Both the position numbers and the translations under genes were made by a program. A stretch of DNA of 64,000 bases from Candidatus Kapaibacterium sp. (GTDB lineage Bacteria > Bacteroidota > Ignavibacteria > Kapaibacteriales > UBA961). Under the pieces are notes generated by a model, which searched no databases, had not been told where the DNA came from, and saw only the letters and a list, made by a program, of their open reading frames with translations. Positions 10,115 through 42,200 of the stretch are shown here, in pieces; the first letter of the stretch is position 1; the number at the start of each line of letters is the position of its first letter. The stretch covers positions 274,599 through 338,598 of the forward strand of contig JAXLVN010000004.1 in NCBI GenBank assembly GCA_046328995.1. Reading direction: 5' to 3'.

Positions 10115-10969
10115 TTACTCTGAATTATTATTAGACCCTTTACTTCGTTTCTTGTCAGCTAAAAGTTGGCGAGCTGATGCTGGACTCACTACTTTCTTAC
10201 CAGTTTTAGCTTCAATCGCTTTACGTGTATTACCCGCAATCGTACCACCTTGGTTGGCTATGATTGTATTTTCTTTGAAAGTCTGAGGTTTCTTTTCCTT
10301 ACTGATTTCTGTCGTTGTTGCCTCGGCAAGCATAGTGAGCACGAGTTCTAAATTGGTCATGTTGTCCCGTAAATTTTCTCGCTTGAGATCTTTATACTGC
10401 TTGTATTGCCGAACATTGAACCCGCTCCATGCTTTTGTGATTTCGTCGGTAAGTAGCGCATATTCCTGTCCTTTTTGTACGCCTCGTTGTTCCCATTCAT
10501 CTGTTAGTTCTTTTCGAACTTCAATACTTTTGAGGCGTTGGTTTATCCATTCTTTGCTATAACCTTTTTTAAGATATGTCTCCATGAGACGGTCAAATCC
10601 GATTTCAGGATTTTCAATCTCATCAATTCTATCGCTTGCAATCGAAGCGAGCCAGACTTTAAAGGGTTCGGCTTTGGGTGATGGAATCGATTGAATTAAC
10701 CTGAAAAGCTGTTCGGTATCAGCGACATCTGTAAGACGCATTTTACCGTCTGCGGCTACCATTTTCAAAGCGTGACAGTTTGTCACGGTTTGATTGCCTT
10801 CTTCCTTGAGCCGTTGTTTTAATTTGCGCCAATATGCTTGCGGATCAATACTTTCTGAAAGTACTCCAACCATATCGACGATTGAAAAATACCATTTTTC
10901 TTCTTGTTCGCTCCAAAGTGAGCGTACTTGCTTTTGCTCAAAAAGCTTGATGCTGGTTTGTAGGGGCAT
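10115..10969 (-). CDS. DinD-like / Bro-N domain protein (DNA-damage-inducible protein D family)
   Basis: The N-terminus (KQVRSLWSEQEEKWYFSIVDMVGVLSESIDPQAYWRKLKQRLKEEG) aligns with E. coli DinD (EYWSARELSQVLEYSEF...RAKEACENSG). The gene is AT-rich relative to its neighbours and flanked by AT-rich intergenic DNA. Confidence 0.6.
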   Translation of the reverse strand: MPLQTSIKLFEQKQVRSLWSEQEEKWYFSIVDMVGVLSESIDPQAYWRKLKQRLKEEGNQTVTNCHALKMVAADGKMRLTDVADTEQLFRLIQSIPSPKAEPFKVWLASIASDRIDEIENPEIGFDRLMETYLKKGYSKEWINQRLKSIEVRKELTDEWEQRGVQKGQEYALLTDEITKAWSGFNVRQYKQYKDLKRENLRDNMTNLELVLTMLAEATTTEISKEKKPQTFKENTIIANQGGTIAGNTRKAIEAKTGKKVVSPASARQLLADKKRSKGSNNNSE

Positions 10970-26163: not shown

Positions 26164-26751
26164 TCAATACCACAACTGCCACTGCACCTTCGCGCTCAGC
26201 GACGTAAGTGATACCTGTCGCTCGGGGATAGCATAATAGCGGAGGTCGCCGCCGATACTGATTGACCGTGAAAGCGGATACGCATAGCCGCCGCCGAGCA
26301 TCCATCCTATTTCCCATTGGGTGCTTGCGGTGAAGTCGGCGTCATTGAGTGTGGCATTGACGCGGTAATTGTACACGCCGACGCCGGAGGTGAGCTCGAT
26401 GCCGTATTTTTCCATGCTGAATATGAGGAGGGCGGGGATGGCGTCGAGTTCGAGCGTGGTGCCCGGTGGCAGCGTCGCATCCTGCTTAACGATGAGATTC
26501 GACACCCGCAGGAGTCCGGTCTCGACACCCATGCCGAGCAAATGATCGGGACGCCAGATAAGCCGTAGCGTCCGCAGAAAGCCGAGCTGGGAATAGTCGG
26601 CTTTATCGACGTCAATCGAACGTTCGATATGGGACTGCGAGAGCCCGAGATTGGCCTGCACGATGAGGCGGTAATCACCACGGAGAGAGTCTTCCTGCGC
26701 GCTTGCAAGGCAGGGTATCAGAAGGAGAAGAGCGAGTATCAGTACTTTCAT
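26164..26751 (-). CDS. Small outer-membrane beta-barrel protein
   Basis: It has a signal peptide, alternating hydrophobic strands and a C-terminal aromatic residue (..QWQLWY). It overlaps the upstream GDPD gene by 4 nt. Confidence 0.6.
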   Translation of the reverse strand: MKVLILALLLLIPCLASAQEDSLRGDYRLIVQANLGLSQSHIERSIDVDKADYSQLGFLRTLRLIWRPDHLLGMGVETGLLRVSNLIVKQDATLPPGTTLELDAIPALLIFSMEKYGIELTSGVGVYNYRVNATLNDADFTASTQWEIGWMLGGGYAYPLSRSISIGGDLRYYAIPERQVSLTSLSAKVQWQLWY

Positions 26752-30464: not shown

Positions 30465-31022
30465 ATGGAACAATCAATCTCTACATATTCAGACGCAGCC
30501 CTCTACGCCATGATGCGCGATGAGGCGACCAAGCAAGTGAGTTTTGCCGAACTCTACGCGCGCCATTCGACGAGGATTTTCCTCTATTGTCGCCGCGCTC
30601 TCGGTGATAATCACGCGGCTGATGATTTGTTCCAGGAAATATTTATCTCATTCTTGAAAAGCAGTGCCGGCAATCAGGACGTGGAAAATGTCGCCGCATA
30701 CCTCGTGCGCATCGCTCGGAATGCAGTACTGAATTCGAAGCGTACGCCACAACCGGCGATGATCTCGCTCGAAGACTTTCATCTGCCGATGAGTGATAAT
30801 CGCTATGAATCACAGGAAATTACCGAACTCATCGCATCGGCTCTCGATACATTACCCGACGATCAGCGCGAGTGCTTTGCATTGCAATTATACAGCGGAC
30901 TCACGTACGCAGAAATTGCAGAAGTCATGAATCTCCCGCTGACAACAGTGCGCAATCGCGTCGTGCGGGCAAAGCGGAGAACCAGGGAAATTCTCGCGCC
31001 CTATTTTGAAGAATATTTGTGA
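30465..31022 (+). CDS. RNA polymerase ECF-type sigma-70 factor
   Basis: A region-2 motif (DDLFQEIFISFLK) and a region-4 HTH (YAEIAEVMNLPLTTVRNRVVRAKRR) are present. The protein is 185 aa. Confidence 0.85.
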   Translation: MEQSISTYSDAALYAMMRDEATKQVSFAELYARHSTRIFLYCRRALGDNHAADDLFQEIFISFLKSSAGNQDVENVAAYLVRIARNAVLNSKRTPQPAMISLEDFHLPMSDNRYESQEITELIASALDTLPDDQRECFALQLYSGLTYAEIAEVMNLPLTTVRNRVVRAKRRTREILAPYFEEYL

Positions 31023-31093
31023 TGGTTAAATTGGCAATCGTAGTAATATCGTTATGAATATAATAGTAACGTATGTTTGGAGAGAAACATGCT

Positions 31094-31201
31094 GTCATTC
31101 TGAACCCTTCGTAGGGTGAAGAATCGAAACATGCTGTAAAATTATTCCTTTAGGACATCATCAAGTTTCGATTCTTCGGTCGAAGACTTCCTCAGAATGA
31201 C
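31094..31201. mobile_element. Miniature inverted-repeat (MITE-like) element, short copy
   Basis: Terminal inverted repeats of ~37 bp run from 31094 (GTCATTCTGAACCCTTCGTAGGGTGAAGAATCGAAAC) and end at 31201 (reverse complement GTCATTCTGAGGAAGTCTTCGACCGAAGAATCGAAAC). They enclose ~34 bp and are the same TIR family as 35577..35856. Confidence 0.7.
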
Positions 31202-31252
31202 ATCCTTATAAATCTATTTTCGTGTAATTTATCAATAGTTGAATGAATTAAA

Positions 31253-32410
31253 ATGGACTACTCAGAACTCATCTACTTATACATCGACGGCGAGGCAAGT
31301 GAGGCGGAGCGAACGCTGCTCTTCTCGGCGCTAGCGACCGACGCTGCACTTCAGGCGGAATTTAACGACGCCTTCAGGATGAATTCTGCCGTTCAGAAAG
31401 AAATCGAAACGACCGTTCCCCCACCCGAACTCACGAGCCAAGTGTTTGAAAAAGCAGGATTTGTAACGCCGGACGAACCATCCCGTAAAAAAGCAGGTTG
31501 GCTTGCCTTGCTGCTGCTGCTCATGAATTCCCGGGGAATTCCACTCCTCACGGCAGTCGGCGGCGCGCTGATTATGTACGGAGTGATGCGGTGGAATTCA
31601 GGCGCAGAACCAAGCGCGACAATTGCTGCAAATGACGCTTCACCGCAATCAATTTCAGCTCCACACAAGTTTCGTGATACGACATCTGCTACACCTTCAA
31701 TTCCCAATGAATCGATCGCGAGCCAACGAATAATTCCAACGAGCAGCAGTAGAATCATTCCTTCCGAACGTACACACATACCTTCCGAACATCTTAATAG
31801 TCAAGAAAATACGAAGAAGATTGTGCCGGATCTTATACCGGTTCGGCATACAATGAGCGCGTTGCATTCGTATCGCTCATCACCATTCGGTCGGGATGAT
31901 TGGCGCCGCCTGACAGCGCCGCAGAATACACTTTCGTTGCCTGCTGATGATTTCGCCGATCTTGTGATGCAGGTCAGCGGTCACAGCGGTTTGCAAGATC
32001 GTGGTGATGCATCACCTGCAATGCTCAATAATATGAGTATCAGCATTGCCTCGCACCTTTCGCCGAATCATCTTCTTGGCGGACAACTTGGGCAGGAGTC
32101 GTTCCCGATTTTCAGTTCAGACGGAACGTTTGAGAGGAATGTGAATGTGATGTGGATTGGCGCCTTATATCGCTACGAAATGGATGGTATCCAAGCACTT
32201 GGCGGTATTCAACCGTTTGCTCAGGTCGTGGCGGCCGGCACACGGTCGGGTCCGCTCGGCAAGGGCACACTCGGCGTGATGTGGCAACCCGAGAGTCGTA
32301 TTATTCTCTCCTTCGGACTCGAAGCCACGGCGCTTGTCTATCAATTCCAAAGCGCATCCTACGGCACGCAAAAGCTGGGCATGAATTATGGCATTTCTGT
32401 CAAATTTTAA
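31253..32410 (+). CDS. Anti-sigma factor for the upstream ECF sigma, with a large extracytoplasmic domain
   Basis: There is an N-terminal anti-sigma domain (MDYSELIYLYIDGEASEAERTLLFSAL), a TM segment (WLALLLLLM) and a Ser/Pro-rich region. Confidence 0.65.
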   Translation: MDYSELIYLYIDGEASEAERTLLFSALATDAALQAEFNDAFRMNSAVQKEIETTVPPPELTSQVFEKAGFVTPDEPSRKKAGWLALLLLLMNSRGIPLLTAVGGALIMYGVMRWNSGAEPSATIAANDASPQSISAPHKFRDTTSATPSIPNESIASQRIIPTSSSRIIPSERTHIPSEHLNSQENTKKIVPDLIPVRHTMSALHSYRSSPFGRDDWRRLTAPQNTLSLPADDFADLVMQVSGHSGLQDRGDASPAMLNNMSISIASHLSPNHLLGGQLGQESFPIFSSDGTFERNVNVMWIGALYRYEMDGIQALGGIQPFAQVVAAGTRSGPLGKGTLGVMWQPESRIILSFGLEATALVYQFQSASYGTQKLGMNYGISVKF

Positions 32411-32430
32411 ATTTTCAAGGGGATTTTCCA

Positions 32431-33009
32431 ATGAGTAAAGCATTTATCATCATGCTGTTATGCGGAGTATCTACGCTCACGGCGCAGGAGGAACAGGCAA
32501 CTTCTCCTTTTCATCATCAGATTGGTGTGGCAGGTTCGTTGATTTCCGGTATGGGAATCAGCTATCAGTATATATTTTCAGATGATTACCGGGTGAAGTG
32601 TACGGGGTTGTATTATACTGGAACAGATAATAATTCAAATTCAGATGATAGGACAGATACGGAGACGCAAGCGGGGCTGGAAGTGCAGAAGAGTCTTTTA
32701 AAGGGAAAAAGTACCCGTGTTTTTGCTTTTGTGGGAGTGGGAATATTGTCATCGACTACACTCAGCAATATCGATATTGACACTCGTGCGAGCAATACTC
32801 AGAACTATTATCACAGTGGCGCCGGTGTTGGAATTGAACTAGTAGTAGCCGGGCGCATAGCTTTTAATATTGAAGTAGGGGCGTTGTATTCTTTAAGAGT
32901 TACGCGAGGAGAATCCGTTGCTCCAAAATATAGTATATACGATTCACATTACTACCGTGAAGCGGGTTTCGGCATCGGCGGTGGCCTTGGTATCGGCTAT
33001 CAATTCTAA
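32431..33009 (+). CDS. Small outer-membrane beta-barrel protein, tandem paralogue 1
   Basis: The start is at MSKAFIIMLLCGVSTLTAQ. It has the conserved FHHQIGVAGS..SG.GISYQ motif and a C-terminal GIGYQF. Confidence 0.65.
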   Translation: MSKAFIIMLLCGVSTLTAQEEQATSPFHHQIGVAGSLISGMGISYQYIFSDDYRVKCTGLYYTGTDNNSNSDDRTDTETQAGLEVQKSLLKGKSTRVFAFVGVGILSSTTLSNIDIDTRASNTQNYYHSGAGVGIELVVAGRIAFNIEVGALYSLRVTRGESVAPKYSIYDSHYYREAGFGIGGGLGIGYQF

Positions 33010-33040
33010 ATATTTCTTCGTACTTTATCAAAGGATATGT

Positions 33041-33616
33041 ATGCTAAAAACTATCATTATCTTCTTGCTGTGTGGTATAGTAACGCTCACGGCGCAGGAG
33101 CAGGCCACGCAGGAATTTCATCATCAGATTGGTGTTGCGGGCTCGAGTATGTCGGGCTATGGTATCAGCTACCAGGCGATTTTTTCGGATAATTATCGGG
33201 TGAAGCTTACGGGCTTTTGTATGAGTGCATCGGCAAGTACGACGTATGATTCGGACGACTTCTATCTTTCGGCCGGGATTGAGGGACAGAAAACTCTCTA
33301 CAAGACTGAAGCCACACGGCTTTATGGACTGCTGGGTGTGGGATTCTACAAGCAGGGCAGTTATGATTATCCTCCAAATTATGGGTTTAGCAGTTATAGT
33401 CACACGGAAAATACGTATTCGGGAGGGGCAGGATTTGGGGTAGAGCTCATTGCTGCCGGGAGGATTTCCTTTAATTTCGACGTAGGACTTGCGTATTCAT
33501 TCAGCGAGCGGAAGTATTATACAAATGATGGCACTCCGTCACCGATAACGCCAATATTTCGGAGTGAGGTGGGTGTGGGTATTGCCGGTGGCATTGGATT
33601 CGGCTATCGATTTTAA
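33041..33616 (+). CDS. Small outer-membrane beta-barrel protein, tandem paralogue 2
   Basis: The start is at MLKTIIIFLLCGIVTLTAQ. It shares the FHHQIGVAGSSMSGYGISYQ motif and ends GFGYRF. Confidence 0.65.
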   Translation: MLKTIIIFLLCGIVTLTAQEQATQEFHHQIGVAGSSMSGYGISYQAIFSDNYRVKLTGFCMSASASTTYDSDDFYLSAGIEGQKTLYKTEATRLYGLLGVGFYKQGSYDYPPNYGFSSYSHTENTYSGGAGFGVELIAAGRISFNFDVGLAYSFSERKYYTNDGTPSPITPIFRSEVGVGIAGGIGFGYRF

Positions 33617-33649
33617 TTTCTTGGTTCACAACTATAGTATCACATTCTA

Positions 33650-34225
33650 TTGTATAGCGTTATGAAAACTACACTCTCATTGCTTCTTGCCTGTTTGTTT
33701 ACCTTCGGAATGCTTTCTGCCGCGCCGGTTGACTCTACGACGATTATGCATCATTCGATCGGGATATCGGGTTCGTCTATCACGGGTTTTGGCGTGGCGT
33801 ATCGCTACAATTTTGATAATCAATGGTATGCCAAAACCGTTGGCGCGCTTTATTATACCGAAGACAGCGACAGTCGAAGCGATTTTTACAGTTTTATAGG
33901 ACTTGAACTACAGCGGAATTTCATCCAAACCCCGAGCACGCGGCTTTATGGTTTTGCGGGGACGAGCTATTGGTACAACATGTCGGAGTCCTCCTACACT
34001 TCTGCCGGGGTAACTACTGTGTACACGTCAAAAGAGCATACGATGAATATCGGTGCGGGGGTAGGATTTGAGCTGTCAATTTGGGAGCATTTCGGAGTGA
34101 ATTTCGACTTTGGATTTCAATATGCCGGCATACAGCATCCAAGCACCACGACGACTGAGAGTAGTTTGAGGTCATCTTCGCGTTCCGGCATGGGCGGTGG
34201 AATCGGCTTCGGGTATCAATTCTAA
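33650..34225 (+). CDS. Small outer-membrane beta-barrel protein, tandem paralogue 3
   Basis: It has a signal peptide, the MHHSIGISGSSITGFGVAYRY motif and ends GFGYQF. Confidence 0.6.
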   Translation: MYSVMKTTLSLLLACLFTFGMLSAAPVDSTTIMHHSIGISGSSITGFGVAYRYNFDNQWYAKTVGALYYTEDSDSRSDFYSFIGLELQRNFIQTPSTRLYGFAGTSYWYNMSESSYTSAGVTTVYTSKEHTMNIGAGVGFELSIWEHFGVNFDFGFQYAGIQHPSTTTTESSLRSSSRSGMGGGIGFGYQF

Positions 34226-34334
34226 GCATTTCCCCGCCACGCAAATACATTGCCCAAAAAGCCGCTTGTACCCCCAAAGAGCGGCTTTTTTCGTAAATTG
34301 CACCCCATTATACCCACTTATCAAGGAAAAACTC

Positions 34335-34544
34335 ATGGCTAAAAATCCTATTGCGGCTAAAGTTCAGAAGGCAACTATGATCCTCGGCGTCGCTAATTTA
34401 CTGGCGGCATTCGCATTTCTCTTCGGCTATTTTATGTCGAAAGAATGGCTCTTCCTCGTCGCCTCCGGCGCAATGTTCGTCGCATTCGGCGGCATTATCG
34501 TGCTGGCAATCAAGATGAAAAAGAAACTCGCTGACCTCGAATAA
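34335..34544 (+). CDS. Small two-TM membrane protein (69 aa)
   Basis: I took the start at MAKNPIAAKVQK, with two hydrophobic helices. It lies 35 nt upstream of the DUF4349-like gene. Confidence 0.4.
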   Translation: MAKNPIAAKVQKATMILGVANLLAAFAFLFGYFMSKEWLFLVASGAMFVAFGGIIVLAIKMKKKLADLE

Positions 34545-34578
34545 TGATGTTCGTTTTCGCCTACTATTTCTCCTGCTT

Positions 34579-35550
34579 ATGAAATCTTTACTGCTTTATC
34601 GTATAGCCGCACTAGCGCTTGTCGTGGTTGTATTGTCTGGGTGTTGGAATAAATCGGGGAATTCAGAAACAGTGCCACAGACGAAGATGAAACTTGAAAA
34701 TCTACCCCCCGCTGAGCAACAGAGGAGTGGTTTGACAGATAATTTTCTGAATTCTCAAATTGCAAACAGTAGTACAGGTAATGGAACAGCACTTGATGTC
34801 GCTGCGAGCACTTCTACTGAACATAACACCGGCTCGAACTCTGCTGCAACACCAACGAAAAAAGAATCGAAAATCATCAAAAATGCGACTATCCGCATTC
34901 GAGTGAAGGACTTTCAGGCGGCAGGTTCGCAGATTGAGGAGATTATCAAGCGACAGGGCGGGTATTTTAGTTCGCAAACCGAGTCTCACACGAGCGATTC
35001 CCGCGAAAATCACGCAGTGATTCGTGTGGGGAATGAAAAATTCGATGCACTGGTCAAAGAACTCGTAAGCATCGCCGAACGTGTTGATTCTAAAAATACT
35101 TCCATCGATGATGTTACCGGTCAATTCGTCGATATTCAGGCGCGGTTGAAGGTAAAAAAAGAAACCGAGAGTAGGTTCTATGAAATCCTCAAGCAAGCCC
35201 GCACCGTCAGCGATATCCTCGAAGTGCAGGGGAAAATCAATGAAATCCGCGAAGAAATCGATGCAGCCGAGGGGAGATTACAAGTACTGAGCGATCAGGT
35301 GACGTTCAGCACCGTGAATCTTGAATACTACGAACGCTTAACGCAAGCTACCACGGCATCAGAAGATAGCTTCGGCGAGAATCTCGCTCGGGGATTCTCT
35401 AATGGTTGGCATGGATTGCTCTCGCTTATCGTATTTGCCGTCACGGTATGGCCATTTTGGATTATTTGCGCGGTATTTCTCTTTATCATTATCAAAAGCG
35501 CTAAACGTATGCGCCGGCAGACGAAAGGTGATACGACTACGAAGTCTTGA
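34579..35550 (+). CDS. DUF4349-like lipoprotein with a coiled-coil and a C-terminal TM anchor
   Basis: There is a lipobox (VVVLSGCW), a Ser/Thr-rich linker, a coiled-coil (RLKVKKETESRFYEILKQAR...AEGRLQVLSDQ) and a C-terminal TM (LLSLIVFAVTVWPFWIICAVFLFIII). Confidence 0.5.
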   Translation: MKSLLLYRIAALALVVVVLSGCWNKSGNSETVPQTKMKLENLPPAEQQRSGLTDNFLNSQIANSSTGNGTALDVAASTSTEHNTGSNSAATPTKKESKIIKNATIRIRVKDFQAAGSQIEEIIKRQGGYFSSQTESHTSDSRENHAVIRVGNEKFDALVKELVSIAERVDSKNTSIDDVTGQFVDIQARLKVKKETESRFYEILKQARTVSDILEVQGKINEIREEIDAAEGRLQVLSDQVTFSTVNLEYYERLTQATTASEDSFGENLARGFSNGWHGLLSLIVFAVTVWPFWIICAVFLFIIIKSAKRMRRQTKGDTTTKS

Positions 35551-35576
35551 GGAATATGCTACTTCCAAAAAAGTCT

Positions 35577-35856
35577 GTCATTCTGAGTGAGTCTTCGAGC
35601 GAAGAATCGACAAGAGCACTACGAACGTTGATGACGATTCTCGGATTTATTGGATTATAATCTGTTGAATAAGAACTCAGTTACAAGTAATCTTGAAGTA
35701 TGCCGATATGAAGTTAGATGCAAATATATACCAACAAAATAAACACATTCATCCTGAAACTGATTTGGTCGAAGTATCATAATGTGCTTCAATGTCATAA
35801 GATGTGACACCATTAGCAAGTGTCGATTCTTCAGTCGAAGACTCCTTCAGAATGAC
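35577..35856. mobile_element. MITE-like element, long copy (~37 bp TIRs flanking ~205 bp of AT-rich non-coding core)
   Basis: The left TIR begins at 35577 (GTCATTCTGAGTGAGTCTTCGAGCGAAGAATCGACAAG). The right TIR ends at 35856 (reverse complement GTCATTCTGAAGGAGTCTTCGACTGAAGAATCGACAC). There is no ORF inside. Confidence 0.7.
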
Positions 35857-35915
35857 ATACTGTTAACTCTATGTCCATAATTGATTTCCCTCAATGTACC
35901 TCAAAATAACTACAC

Positions 35916-37100
35916 ATGAATACTACCCTTATCTCCCGTGAACATGATGCAATTTTTCAGACCTACAGGCGGCTGCCGGTAGCAATTGACCATGCCGCAG
36001 GATGCAGAGTCTATGACACCGAAGGCAATGTTTATCTCGATTTTTTAGGTGGAATTGCCGTCAACGCGCTCGGTCATAGTCATCCGCGGATCATCGAAGC
36101 CGTCGAAAAACAGCTTCGCAAGTATATGCATGTGTCGAATTATTTCTATCAGGAGCCGCAGATTCAGCTTGCTGAAAAATTAAAAGAAATCACCGGATTT
36201 GATCGGGTGTATTTCAGTAATTCCGGTTCGGAATCCTTCGAAGGCGCCGTAAAACTCGCCCGTAAATGGGGTAATGCACGCGGAAAAACAGAGATTATAG
36301 GGTTCAGCGGCGGCTTCCACGGACGCACCTACGCTCCGCTCTCCGTCATGGATAAACCGTTGTATAAAAACGGGATGGAACCATTTCTTCCTAATAATCG
36401 TGTGCTGAAGTTTAATGATTGCGAACAATTACGCGCACATGTCAATGAAGCAACCTGTGCAATTGCAGTAGAATATTTGCAAGGCGAAGGCGGCGTGACA
36501 TTCGCGACGCAGGAATTCGCCGCAACGATTGAAGAATTGCGGCAGCAGTACGGCTTCCTCCTCATCGCCGATGAAGTGCAGGCAGGCGGCGGTCGCACGG
36601 GACATTTCTACGGATTTCAGCATCGGAATGCAACGCCCGATATCGTAACGATGGCAAAGGCAATCGGCGGCGGACTCCCGCTGGGCGCGATACTCGCGCG
36701 TGAACATGTCGCAGACGAGTGGAAACCCGGAATGCATGGCACGACATACGGCGGCAACGCGCTTGCCTGCGCGGCAGGACTCGTCGTTCTTGAGGAGCTT
36801 GGTCACGGAATTACCGAGAATGTATGGACGGTTGGCGCATATCTTACCGAAAAGCTACAGGAAGTTCAGCGAGAATTTCCGGAGAAAATCACCGAACTCC
36901 GCGGTTGTGGCATGATGCAGGGCGTCGTGTTAAATGGTGAATCTCAGCCAATCGTAAATGCATTACTTACCCGAAAAGTAATCGCTAATGCCACATCCGT
37001 CAATGTCGTGCGGCTCTTGCCTCCGCTGACGATTACCACAAGCGATGTCGATGAGTTTATCGGGCATTTCAGGGCGGTGATTGCGGAAGCCAAATTGTAA
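35916..37100 (+). CDS. argD: Class-III PLP-dependent aminotransferase, acetylornithine/succinylornithine aminotransferase-like
   Basis: Class III aminotransferase motifs are present (DFLGGIAVNALGHSHP, FIADEVQAGGGRTG, TMAKAIGGGLP). The protein is 394 aa. Confidence 0.7.
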   Translation: MNTTLISREHDAIFQTYRRLPVAIDHAAGCRVYDTEGNVYLDFLGGIAVNALGHSHPRIIEAVEKQLRKYMHVSNYFYQEPQIQLAEKLKEITGFDRVYFSNSGSESFEGAVKLARKWGNARGKTEIIGFSGGFHGRTYAPLSVMDKPLYKNGMEPFLPNNRVLKFNDCEQLRAHVNEATCAIAVEYLQGEGGVTFATQEFAATIEELRQQYGFLLIADEVQAGGGRTGHFYGFQHRNATPDIVTMAKAIGGGLPLGAILAREHVADEWKPGMHGTTYGGNALACAAGLVVLEELGHGITENVWTVGAYLTEKLQEVQREFPEKITELRGCGMMQGVVLNGESQPIVNALLTRKVIANATSVNVVRLLPPLTITTSDVDEFIGHFRAVIAEAKL

Positions 37101-41331: not shown

Positions 41332-41622
41332 ATGCACACACTCTTACGGCAATCACTCTTTTGGGATTCTAATCTTGAGTCGCTAGACCTCCAAAAGCAT
41401 AAGCGGAAAATTATCGTTCGCGTGCTTGAGCGCGGAACGCTTCAGGATTGGCAGGCAATTAAAGAGCTCTATGGCAAGGATACTATACGCGATGAAGTAC
41501 TGCAAGCCCGTTCGCTCGATAAATACGTGCTCGCGTTTTGTTCGGCATATTTTGATGTACCCAAGGAGGACTTTCGATGCTATACACTGATTCAGTACCA
41601 AAAGAAGCACTGGAATTATTAA
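41332..41622 (+). CDS. Hypothetical protein, putative cognate antitoxin or regulator of the AbiEii-like module
   Basis: It is 96 aa and directly upstream of, and possibly overlapping, the nucleotidyltransferase gene. It has no recognisable motif beyond a possible helical HTH-like stretch. Confidence 0.35.
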   Translation: MHTLLRQSLFWDSNLESLDLQKHKRKIIVRVLERGTLQDWQAIKELYGKDTIRDEVLQARSLDKYVLAFCSAYFDVPKEDFRCYTLIQYQKKHWNY

Positions 41623-42200
41623 TTCGTCTTATGAAACTTGATGCATTGCAACCATTTGCACTCGCTGGTGGAACTGCTCTCGCTTTGCGTTTCGGGCATC
41701 GAGTGTCGTATGATATTGATTTATTCACGTCTGTGGGATTTGATGCGCAAGCACTTGCTGAGAGCATTCAGCGGAGCGAACCTATTAGTCAATTCCGTGT
41801 TCAACCCAATACTATCAATGCACAGGTAGCAGGTGTAAAGCTGGATTGCCTCGCACATCGGTACAATCAACTTGGGGCAATCGAAGTAATTGATGGTATT
41901 CGCCTCTATTCTCTTCCGGATTGTGTAGCAATGAAGCTATCAGCAGTTGGAGGTCGTGGCGCGCGGAAAGATTTCTATGATATTGCTGCTCTTATGCAGG
42001 TAATGACACTACCCGAAATGGTTGAATGCTTTGAAAAGAAATACCCCAATGCCGATAGCTTACATACTATTCTAGCCCTAACGTATTTTGATGATGCTAA
42101 TCTTGAAGAAGAGGTTACACTTAGCGCCACATCACCTGCTCAACTACAATCATGGCACGCAGTCCAATCGTTACTTGTACGTGAAGTGAAGAAACTATGA
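41577..42200 (+). CDS. AbiEii/AbiGii-family nucleotidyltransferase toxin (DUF1814)
   Basis: Nucleotidyltransferase motifs are present (FALAGGTALALRFGHRVSYDIDLF). An alternative start at 41631 would avoid the overlap with the upstream ORF. Confidence 0.65.
   Translation: MLYTDSVPKEALELLIRLMKLDALQPFALAGGTALALRFGHRVSYDIDLFTSVGFDAQALAESIQRSEPISQFRVQPNTINAQVAGVKLDCLAHRYNQLGAIEVIDGIRLYSLPDCVAMKLSAVGGRGARKDFYDIAALMQVMTLPEMVECFEKKYPNADSLHTILALTYFDDANLEEEVTLSATSPAQLQSWHAVQSLLVREVKKL

Follow-up and report, generated by a model that had tools for sequence, protein, structure and literature searches.

Paired hairpins with the grammar of Ssn-associated repeats inside a ~178-bp, target-duplicating element of a Kapaibacterium lineage

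A stretch of 64,000 nucleotides from Candidatus Kapaibacterium sp. (assembly GCA_046328995.1, contig JAXLVN010000004.1, positions 274,599 to 338,598; this whole stretch is called the window here) carries four copies of a ~37-bp repeat, arranged as two inverted pairs, one of which separates the gene of an ECF sigma factor from a putative anti-sigma gene. What are these repeats, and what carries them from place to place? A first-pass annotation, made from the sequence alone, had taken them for the terminal inverted repeats (TIRs) of a family of miniature transposable elements with inverted repeats (MITEs). We found that each repeat is a self-folding hairpin, composed of a TGTC tag, an AT-started palindrome with tandem G·A mismatches and then a C, and that two such hairpins, A and B, sit convergently inside a ~178-bp element of this lineage. 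The element carries a 3-bp TWA target-site duplication (coordinates of all features are collected in Table 1).

The four units lie exactly where they had first been placed, at 31094-31130 (+), 31165-31201 (-), 35577-35614 (+) and 35822-35856 (-). All four fit ATTCTGA-N14-GAAGAAT exactly, a pattern for which 0.01 matches per window are expected by chance and which never reached four matches in dinucleotide shuffles; within the 64 kb, GTCATTCTGA occurs exactly at these four sites only. A fuzzy fifth unit at 26687-26727 was rejected as a chance match inside a gene and without the inner hairpin. Rfam gave no match at gathering score for the window and 12 loci, and in an E-value-mode scan of 31000-36000 the sole match with E<10 near the region was unrelated and sub-threshold.

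Hammerhead ribozymes, k-turns and CRISPR repeats were considered by eye against their consensus sequences and dropped. The likeness (CUGA...GAA, GUC/GAAAC) is superficial: the required G8/A14 positions and the bulge are missing, and the GAAAC tail is lineage-specific. Querying the literature by sequence strings returned nothing beyond chance matches to primers and vectors.

On the GTCATTCTGA strand, a common fold can be drawn for all four units. At its base (T)GTC is paired with GAC(A), with one bulged C. Next comes the ATTCT/AGAAT pairing, then one tandem G·A/A·G step, and above it an inner stem closed by a loop of 4 nt. In B-type units such a step occurs a second time; this second one is conserved in 9 of 9 distinct B units, and the pairs flanking it covary (GC/AT and GC/CG/TA). 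In a sample of 29 distinct hairpin units of the Kapaibacterium lineage, the nested hairpin ATTCT-GA-(inner stem)-GA-AGAAT reached a covariation of 0.282 versus 0.105 in shuffles, with 0 of 500 shuffles as high and slid-partner controls at 0.05-0.09. All variable pairs of the inner stem (5/5) change on both sides (A-T/G-C; C-G/G-C/T-A; T-A/G-C). The internal hairpin proposed earlier, TCTTCG/CGAAGA, is not the conserved fold: its covariation is 0.006, with zero double changes. Unit A (31093..31130) has a minimum free energy of -15.1 kcal/mol (z -3.0).

Conservation does not stop at the hairpins. It runs ~47 bp beyond A and 23 bp beyond B, into outer arms reading TACAGATATGAATTTAATAGTAACGTATTTATAA…CGCT on the A side and ATACTTTTTAATCTATTTTGGTA on the B side, which gives the element the layout left arm, hairpin A, 44-bp spacer, reversed hairpin B, right arm. 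The doublet is asymmetric, always combining one A unit (loop ACCCTTCTTAGGGT) with one B unit (RGGAGTCTTCGACY), and 38 of 51 doublets in the related metagenome contigs measure exactly 108 bp, the same as 31094-31201. The good long inverted repeats, i.e. the hairpin units, are subterminal, and the termini of the element itself are imperfect, TAC(A/C)GATATGAAT ... ATCTATTTTGGTA.

Copies of the element were gathered by a metagenome scan with the B-unit pattern, which yielded 63 contigs. A profile built from 30 copies was matched over its full length 52 times in the 299 kb that the related contigs comprise; this count is biased, because the metagenome copies were collected with the hairpin pattern, and it may pool several related species. 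Mean pairwise identity among the copies is 75%, and all of them are intergenic, near gene ends.

Each end of the element is bordered by TTA or TAA, and this triplet is identical on both sides in 15 of 23 copies versus 8 expected (Fisher ~0.001), with TTA/TTA in 6 cases, TAA/TAA in 9 and mixed triplets in 2 (one locus seen twice). A target-site duplication, which the first-pass annotation had suggested looking for, is thus present.

Its position contradicts the classic MITE explanation, in which the ~37-bp repeats would be TIRs bound by a DDE transposase and the units of 108 bp and 280 bp would be mobile. The inverted pairs do exist at the places given for them, and the family is multi-copy, non-coding, insertion-polymorphic and mobile-looking, so that this part of the proposal holds. 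The repeats, however, are not the TIRs: the conserved sequence extends past them by 23-47 bp, and it is there that the target duplication is found. The same supposed TIR recurs in many phyla with freely covarying inner hairpins, and no direct repeat abuts the ends of 66 doublets from other phyla. Moreover, the 280-bp unit, a "long copy" thought to enclose ~205 bp, is really two things, a solo hairpin and an independent, decayed full copy, since the profile search gives a full-copy match and a separate B-unit-only match. The solo hairpin aligns to model positions 118-167 only and is kept in the orthologous contig L129 (L numbers are our designations); it is what remains of a third copy, truncated and oppositely oriented. 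We consider the classic MITE explanation distinctly unlikely.

Copy 1, which separates the ECF sigma gene from its downstream neighbour, is an insertion, as orthologous sites are empty in strains with a 99%-identical sigma factor. Comparison of the sigma/anti-sigma junction across related strains, another check suggested at the outset, showed the element to be polymorphic: copy 1 is present in the window and in L121 and absent from L319, L324, L325, L327, L329, L187, L188 and L189. In L319, L324, L325 and L327, which read through the site beside the 99%-identical sigma gene, the element profile found no match even at E≤10. Relatives whose sigma factor is 75-77% identical have element-free sigma/downstream spacers of 24-35 bp, and relatives found via a ~50%-identical downstream protein likewise have 24-35-bp spacers without the element. 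The spacer in the window measures 230 bp, or ~49 bp if the element is removed.

At the nucleotide level, the window site reads AATCGTAG-TAA-(element)-TAA-TTTATCAATAG, and the contigs with the 99%-identical sigma gene read AATCGAAG-TAA-GATAC-TAA-TTTATCAATAG at the same place. Contigs L121, L186 and L320-L328 terminate at or inside these repeats, breaks of the kind that multi-copy DNA tends to cause. We rejected L185 as an empty site, as it is a second haplotype with a different insert.

Two further observations concern the empty sites. Where a simple empty site would show a single TAA, L319 at ~1960-1990 has TAA-GATAC-TAA (compared with window 31036-31046 and 31225-31238), which may be the footprint of an excision, the result of a small duplication or simple divergence. 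In addition, the sigma/anti-sigma spacer (window 31023-31252) holds a different, ~115-bp insert in L319 at 1814-1995 and also in L324, L325 and L327. This insert is built from another palindromic pair, AGGGGCGAATTGCATTCGCCC ... GGGCGAATGCAATTCGCCCCT, located ~20 bp further upstream and absent from the 64-kb window.

The two genes around copy 1 had been called an ECF sigma/anti-sigma pair. The sigma factor has three Pfam domains; the downstream gene has no Pfam match and is a putative anti-sigma gene by conserved position, being directly 3' of the orthologous sigma gene in L187, L188, L189 and L329. An effect of the insert on the sigma/anti-sigma transcript is possible, since the whole element is predicted to fold strongly both as single-stranded DNA (-30.4 kcal/mol, z -5.7) and as RNA (-54.2 kcal/mol, z -5.5). 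The insert would mainly lengthen and structure the intergenic transcript, with no termination.

A strong RNA fold might also suggest that the hairpins are regulatory palindromes (RNA terminators, stabilisers or promoter modules) that are held by selection and do not move. The location of every copy close to gene ends agrees with this, as does one outward sigma-70-like match, ATGACA-18-CATAAT, at 35852-35881. Orientation, however, is unbiased, with the A side facing 23 gene ends and 16 starts and the B side 20 and 18. There are no terminator-like sites, promoter matches stay at shuffle level, Rfam has no match, and the orthologous site is empty in close relatives. Additionally, SsnA, the Neisseria nuclease with which we compare this system below, does not interact with RNA in Neisseria (PMC11893778). 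We regard a purely regulatory origin as highly improbable.

How far does the hairpin extend beyond this lineage? A cross-phylum scan with the pattern GTCATTCTGA-N5-24-GAAGAATC, taking one genome per species, gave at least 120 loci; in all, the same motif class occurs in >240 loci of many phyla. Hosts among the matches listed include Chloroflexota, Acidobacteriota, Nitrospirota, Patescibacteria, Bacteroidota, Ignavibacteria, Firmicutes, delta-proteobacteria, Helicobacter and others. Across 152 cross-phylum matches the flanks are constant and the inner part is a perfect hairpin of freely varying sequence, most frequently GCGNAGC, with ACGAAGT, GTGAAAC, GGCCGCAGGCC, TCCGCCTGAGGCGGA and AGCGATCCGATGAGGATCGCT among the further forms. 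A T stands at position -1 of the unit in 114 of these 152 matches (75%), and T then C usually follow it. Neighbouring units are mainly convergent, with 68 '+-' arrangements versus 13 '-+', 11 '++' and 7 '--'. Since the inner hairpins covary freely across many phyla, the motif appears to be a structural one of single-stranded DNA and not the footprint of a transposase on duplex DNA.

The hairpin motif is also frequent on viral-classed contigs (IMG/VR, L199-L318; at least 120 loci). No GIY-YIG or ssn-like open reading frame (ORF) was present on the 120 viral-contig loci with the motif.

The genes that accompany the motif were sought by an all-against-all BLAST of ORFs around it at 120 genome loci, the ORF cut-off being 90 aa. 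The neighbours of the motif at these 120 loci included no recurrent transposase-like family, and no family occurred in more than 7 of them; the two largest neighbour families (ABC and response-regulator) were set aside as unrelated to transposition. The comparison yielded one small cluster that Pfam identified as GIY-YIG, visible only since three ORFs passed the cut-off. In L005, L036 and L190 such GIY-YIG ORFs, 93-109 aa long, are enclosed by convergent units. In L005 (Saccharibacteria) the forward unit stops 6 nt 5' of the ATG of a 93-aa GIY-YIG gene and the reverse unit begins 5 nt past its stop codon; in L190 (Nitrospirota) and L036 (Gracilibacteria) it is the reverse unit that contains the stop codon (…TCAGAATGA). 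On a Planktothrix plasmid (L197) complete doublets stand on either side of the gene, and variant hairpins surround it in L191/L042, L193-195 and L198.

A profile search recovered at least 7,999 GIY-YIG homologs, most of them on contigs <2 kb, and several terminate in DSSLRSE, DPSLRPG or similar, which are reverse units in translation. When compared with the gonococcal chromosome, the Nitrospirota protein showed 44% identity (E 1e-17). The L005 protein was 46% identical (E 1e-25) to the product of the gonococcal ssnA locus, which is bracketed by CGTCATTCCCGC…GGGAATC NTS repeats. PDB and NCBIfam, searched with the GIY-YIG profile and proteins, returned UPF0213 structures, one sub-threshold group I intron endonuclease model and nothing else.

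Some of these loci have peculiarities of their own. In P0029, P0092, P0104, P0113, P0119, P0108, P0122 and others, the C-terminal tails of the GIY-YIG proteins are translated flanking hairpin repeats (DSSLRSE, DPSLRPG, GDAETSSA, MLKQVQHK), and in several loci the stop codon comes from the repeat. In L191 (1479-1848) and L042 (2560-3000) the GIY-YIG gene occupies a short gap between AtuA and AtuA_ferredoxin, with the variant hairpins TCCTGAATTTATTTCAGGATC upstream and GATGCTGAAACAAGTTCAGCAT downstream. In L005 (7040-7066) the 11-mer TACAGATATGA, found 18 nt upstream of the forward hairpin in front of the GIY-YIG gene, is identical to the left end of the element in Kapaibacterium; the profile of the full element gives no match in L005. 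In L036 (5740-6700) four forward hairpin units adjoin the GIY-YIG gene, three of them in a repeated segment with a spacing of ~190-210 bp (…CCGTACTCCCAGTACACCACTCTCT…), a composite unlike the Kapaibacterium element.

The gonococcal homolog has a described target. SsnA of Neisseria is a single-domain GIY-YIG protein of 94 aa (cd10448) that binds the NTS hairpin (CGTCATTCCCGCGMAVGCGGGAATCYRG) as single-stranded DNA only and on the forward strand only, and cleaves a few nucleotides upstream of it (Chenal et al., Nat Commun 2025, PMC11893778). The three bases 5' of the palindrome (GTC) are key for cutting and the C just 3' for binding; loop identity is dispensable for cleavage, and extensions are tolerated at the loop position (PMC11893778). 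In Neisseria the Ssn system restricts transformation by NTS-bearing DNA, and related motifs (SRMs) occur near 71% of ssnA homologs, on both sides in 42% (PMC11893778).

The hairpins of the window share the grammar of these motifs, CGTC-ATTCCCGCGMAVGCGGGAAT-CYRG in NTS versus TGTC-ATTCTGA...GAAGAAT-C here. In all four window units a TGTC tag stands directly 5' of the palindrome, matching the HGTC of SRMs, and ATTCT...AGAAT is followed by C, as the SRM palindrome is. In both systems the loop sequence is variable, intergenic copies number in the hundreds, and the motifs flank single-domain GIY-YIG genes, with motif-class proteins 44-46% identical to the gonococcal homolog. Unlike SRM/NTS, the window palindrome is longer (28 nt) and includes tandem G·A steps, one or two in number and conserved, and the Kapaibacterium motifs form part of a larger element that has ends and a target duplication of its own.

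On the strength of the shared grammar and the gene association, we file the window hairpins as a probable variant of the SRM class, even though not one of the four units fits the published SRM pattern, HGTCWYN(0-2)YYVSBRHN(0-5)WNVSBRGN(0-2)RNCYNB. Nor do three consensus sequences of related hairpin units (two of them of the GTCATTCTGA...GAAGAATC / GC-shifted class); NTS, used as a positive control, matches. This failure lowers the SRM claim without defeating it, because the pattern is a search aid and not a definition.

The same repeat class was described earlier as CGTC-tagged repetitive extragenic palindromes (REPs), including Neisseria dRS3 and Rickettsia RPE-4/RPE-6 (Di Nocera et al., BMC Genomics 2013, PMC3733652). 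In that description the TGTC tag is frequent, A-T occupies the first two stem positions, most copies are head-to-head dimers, Chlorobi and Bacteroidetes are among the hosts, and there is 'no dedicated transposase' (PMC3733652). The tag, the first stem positions, the head-to-head arrangement and the host groups are all shared with our hairpins. The four CGTC-tagged families, however, have 8-9-bp stems, 4-5-nt loops and a CCA tail, whereas the window stem has at least 12 positions with G·A mismatches, and its tail is CGAAAC/CGACA (CTC in other phyla).

REPINs and their RAYT transposases are a further comparison, as they too are intergenic, multi-copy, inverted hairpin pairs with a short spacer, foldable as one long hairpin (Bertels and Rainey 2011, PMC3116915). 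The window differs in its tag (GTC versus GTAG) and in a copied unit with extra arms and a 3-bp duplication; among the neighbours of 120 loci no RAYT was seen, and the motif-flanked gene is GIY-YIG instead.

In a REPIN-like explanation the doublet would be moved as single-stranded DNA by a RAYT-type Y1 enzyme or by Ssn itself, with the arms as passengers or as the preferred target. Such movement would agree with the convergent bias, with the strong single-stranded fold of the element and with the ssn genes lying exactly between convergent units in the fashion of an insertion sequence, a likeness that the authors of the Neisseria study also drew for NTS-ssnA-NTS (PMC11893778). As Ssn cuts upstream and on the forward strand only, both cuts would fall just outside a convergent pair. 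What is copied in this lineage, however, extends over the outer arms of 47 bp and 23 bp and is bounded by a 3-bp duplication, which is not a product of known single-stranded DNA (HUH) transposition. The expected Ssn cut sites, ~3 nt 5' of TGTC, are not at the element ends, the 120 loci have no recurrent transposase-like family, and no Ssn has a reported transposition activity. We judge a REPIN-like origin of the copies unlikely.

The explanation that we favour, and hold as a whole to be probable, is that the hairpins are of the SRM class, a class bound and cut by Ssn nucleases as single-stranded DNA only, and that in this lineage a convergent A/B pair of them resides in a ~178-bp element that duplicates TWA. 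By the likeness to NTS, an Ssn encoded elsewhere in the genome would recognise the hairpins in single-stranded DNA. The element itself would be moved by a transposase acting in trans with 3-bp staggered cuts, as the TWA duplication at ends 23-47 bp outside the hairpins points there. The Ssn cut sites lie off the element ends and the doublets of other phyla show no duplication; hence, the pair of hairpins and the transposon around it seem to be two separate layers.

The mover may be an IS5 / PIF-Harbinger-like DDE enzyme, by analogy with the 3-bp TWA duplication of IS5 / PIF-Harbinger (Tourist-like MITE) elements. Like Tourist-like MITEs, the element is small, non-coding and intergenic, has AT-rich imperfect termini and a TTA/TAA duplication, and occurs in tens of copies with insertion polymorphism. 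It differs in its termini, which are not known to resemble any IS5-family end, in the two SRM hairpins inside it, and in the lack of an identified autonomous partner among the loci searched; the autonomous parent with a transposase that the first-pass annotation had envisaged was thus not found. The element consensus had no match in plasmid and phage collections.

Several points weigh against this two-layer explanation. Besides the biased copy count and the mismatch with the published SRM pattern, the outer termini TACAGATATGAAT and the reverse complement TACCAAAATAGAT agree at 8 of 13 positions by eye, and the target duplication of copy 2 is not recognisable. None of the 20 window ORFs tested is a transposase. 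In the loci searched there is no longer element with the same termini, which were not seen outside the 178-bp copies, and the 64-kb window plus 299 kb of related contigs (~360 kb of the lineage) contain no ssn gene.

The convergent bias and the insertion-sequence-like placement of ssn genes keep alive a role of Ssn in the spread itself. Convergent SRM pairs could be the ends of an unrecognised class of mobile DNA driven by Ssn, with the Kapaibacterium element and its TWA duplications as a derivative still dependent on Ssn and not on a DDE transposase. SRM-ssn-SRM would then represent the autonomous form, and doublets lacking a gene would be its miniature counterpart. We give this a small but appreciable chance.

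Under the favoured explanation, in which Ssn cuts the hairpins and a transposase moves the element, the hairpin class is a known one (SRM/CGTC-REP plus Ssn nuclease) and the carrier is an ordinary-looking MITE, so that this is not a new system. New are an SRM variant in many phyla, and a lineage whose SRM pairs multiply inside an element with target duplication. The variant class that the published pattern misses is large and multi-phylum, marked by its tandem G·A steps and by an inner hairpin whose sequence varies freely; consequently, genome counts of Ssn target motifs are probably too low and the range of sequences usable by Ssn is probably wider than tested. To our knowledge, this is the first sequence-level sign of SRM pairs spreading in an element with target duplication and with filled and empty alleles, which bears on how these repeats multiply.

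There are practical consequences as well. The repeats break assemblies, as in the truncated contigs listed above (L121, L186, L320-L328), and predicted proteins gain spurious C-terminal tails from them. At the insertion site of copy 1, a sigma/anti-sigma spacer that is normally 24-35 bp has become 230 bp long and acquired a strongly folding segment.

Table 1. Element copies, hairpins and adjoining genes in the window (TSD, target-site duplication)
Feature	Position	Strand	Evidence or remark
ECF sigma factor gene, upstream of copy 1	30465..31022	+	Pfam Sigma70_r2, Sigma70_r4_2, Sigma70_ECF
Left TSD of copy 1, TAA	31044..31046	.	identical TAA on the other side
Copy 1 of the ~178-bp MITE-like element	31047..31224	+	nhmmer 31044-31228, E 4.8e-49; 83% to consensus
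Hairpin A, T-GTC tag, ATTCT-GA-ACCCT(TCGT)AGGGT-GA-AGAAT, C, tail GAAAC	31093..31130	+	fold, inner-stem covariation
Hairpin B, TGTC-ATTCT-GA-GG-AA-G(TCTT)C-GA-CC-GA-AGAAT-C	31165..31202	-	fold, conserved second G·A/A·G step
Right TSD of copy 1, TAA	31225..31227	.	related-strain contig L186 begins right after the triplet
Putative anti-sigma gene, downstream of copy 1	31253..32410	+	conserved position only; Pfam none
Solo B-type hairpin with ~10 bp of decayed right arm to its left	35576..35614	+	nhmmer 35567-35616, minus strand, E 3e-12
Copy 2, complete, decayed	35701..35879	+	nhmmer 35700-35878, E 3.9e-27; 66% to consensus
Degenerate hairpin A of copy 2, TTCATCCTGA...GAAGTATC, hairpin no longer formable	35748..35778	+	fuzzy match, consensus alignment
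Intact hairpin B of copy 2	35820..35857	-	ATTCTGA-N14-GAAGAAT fit, fold

Copy 2 is situated between the DUF4349 gene and a class-III aminotransferase gene. Downstream of the putative anti-sigma gene, at 32431-34225, the window has three tandem paralogues of ~191 aa, each with a glycine-rich GFGYQF-like tail and one with a weak match to an outer membrane protein (OMP) beta-barrel. Relatives have five to eight such paralogues in tandem (L187 7195-10282, L188 4222-9121). Elsewhere in the window, a nucleotidyltransferase toxin of the AbiEii type (type IV toxin-antitoxin) and a protein with a Bro-N domain (41577-42200 and 10115-10969) hint at mobile or defence-related DNA.

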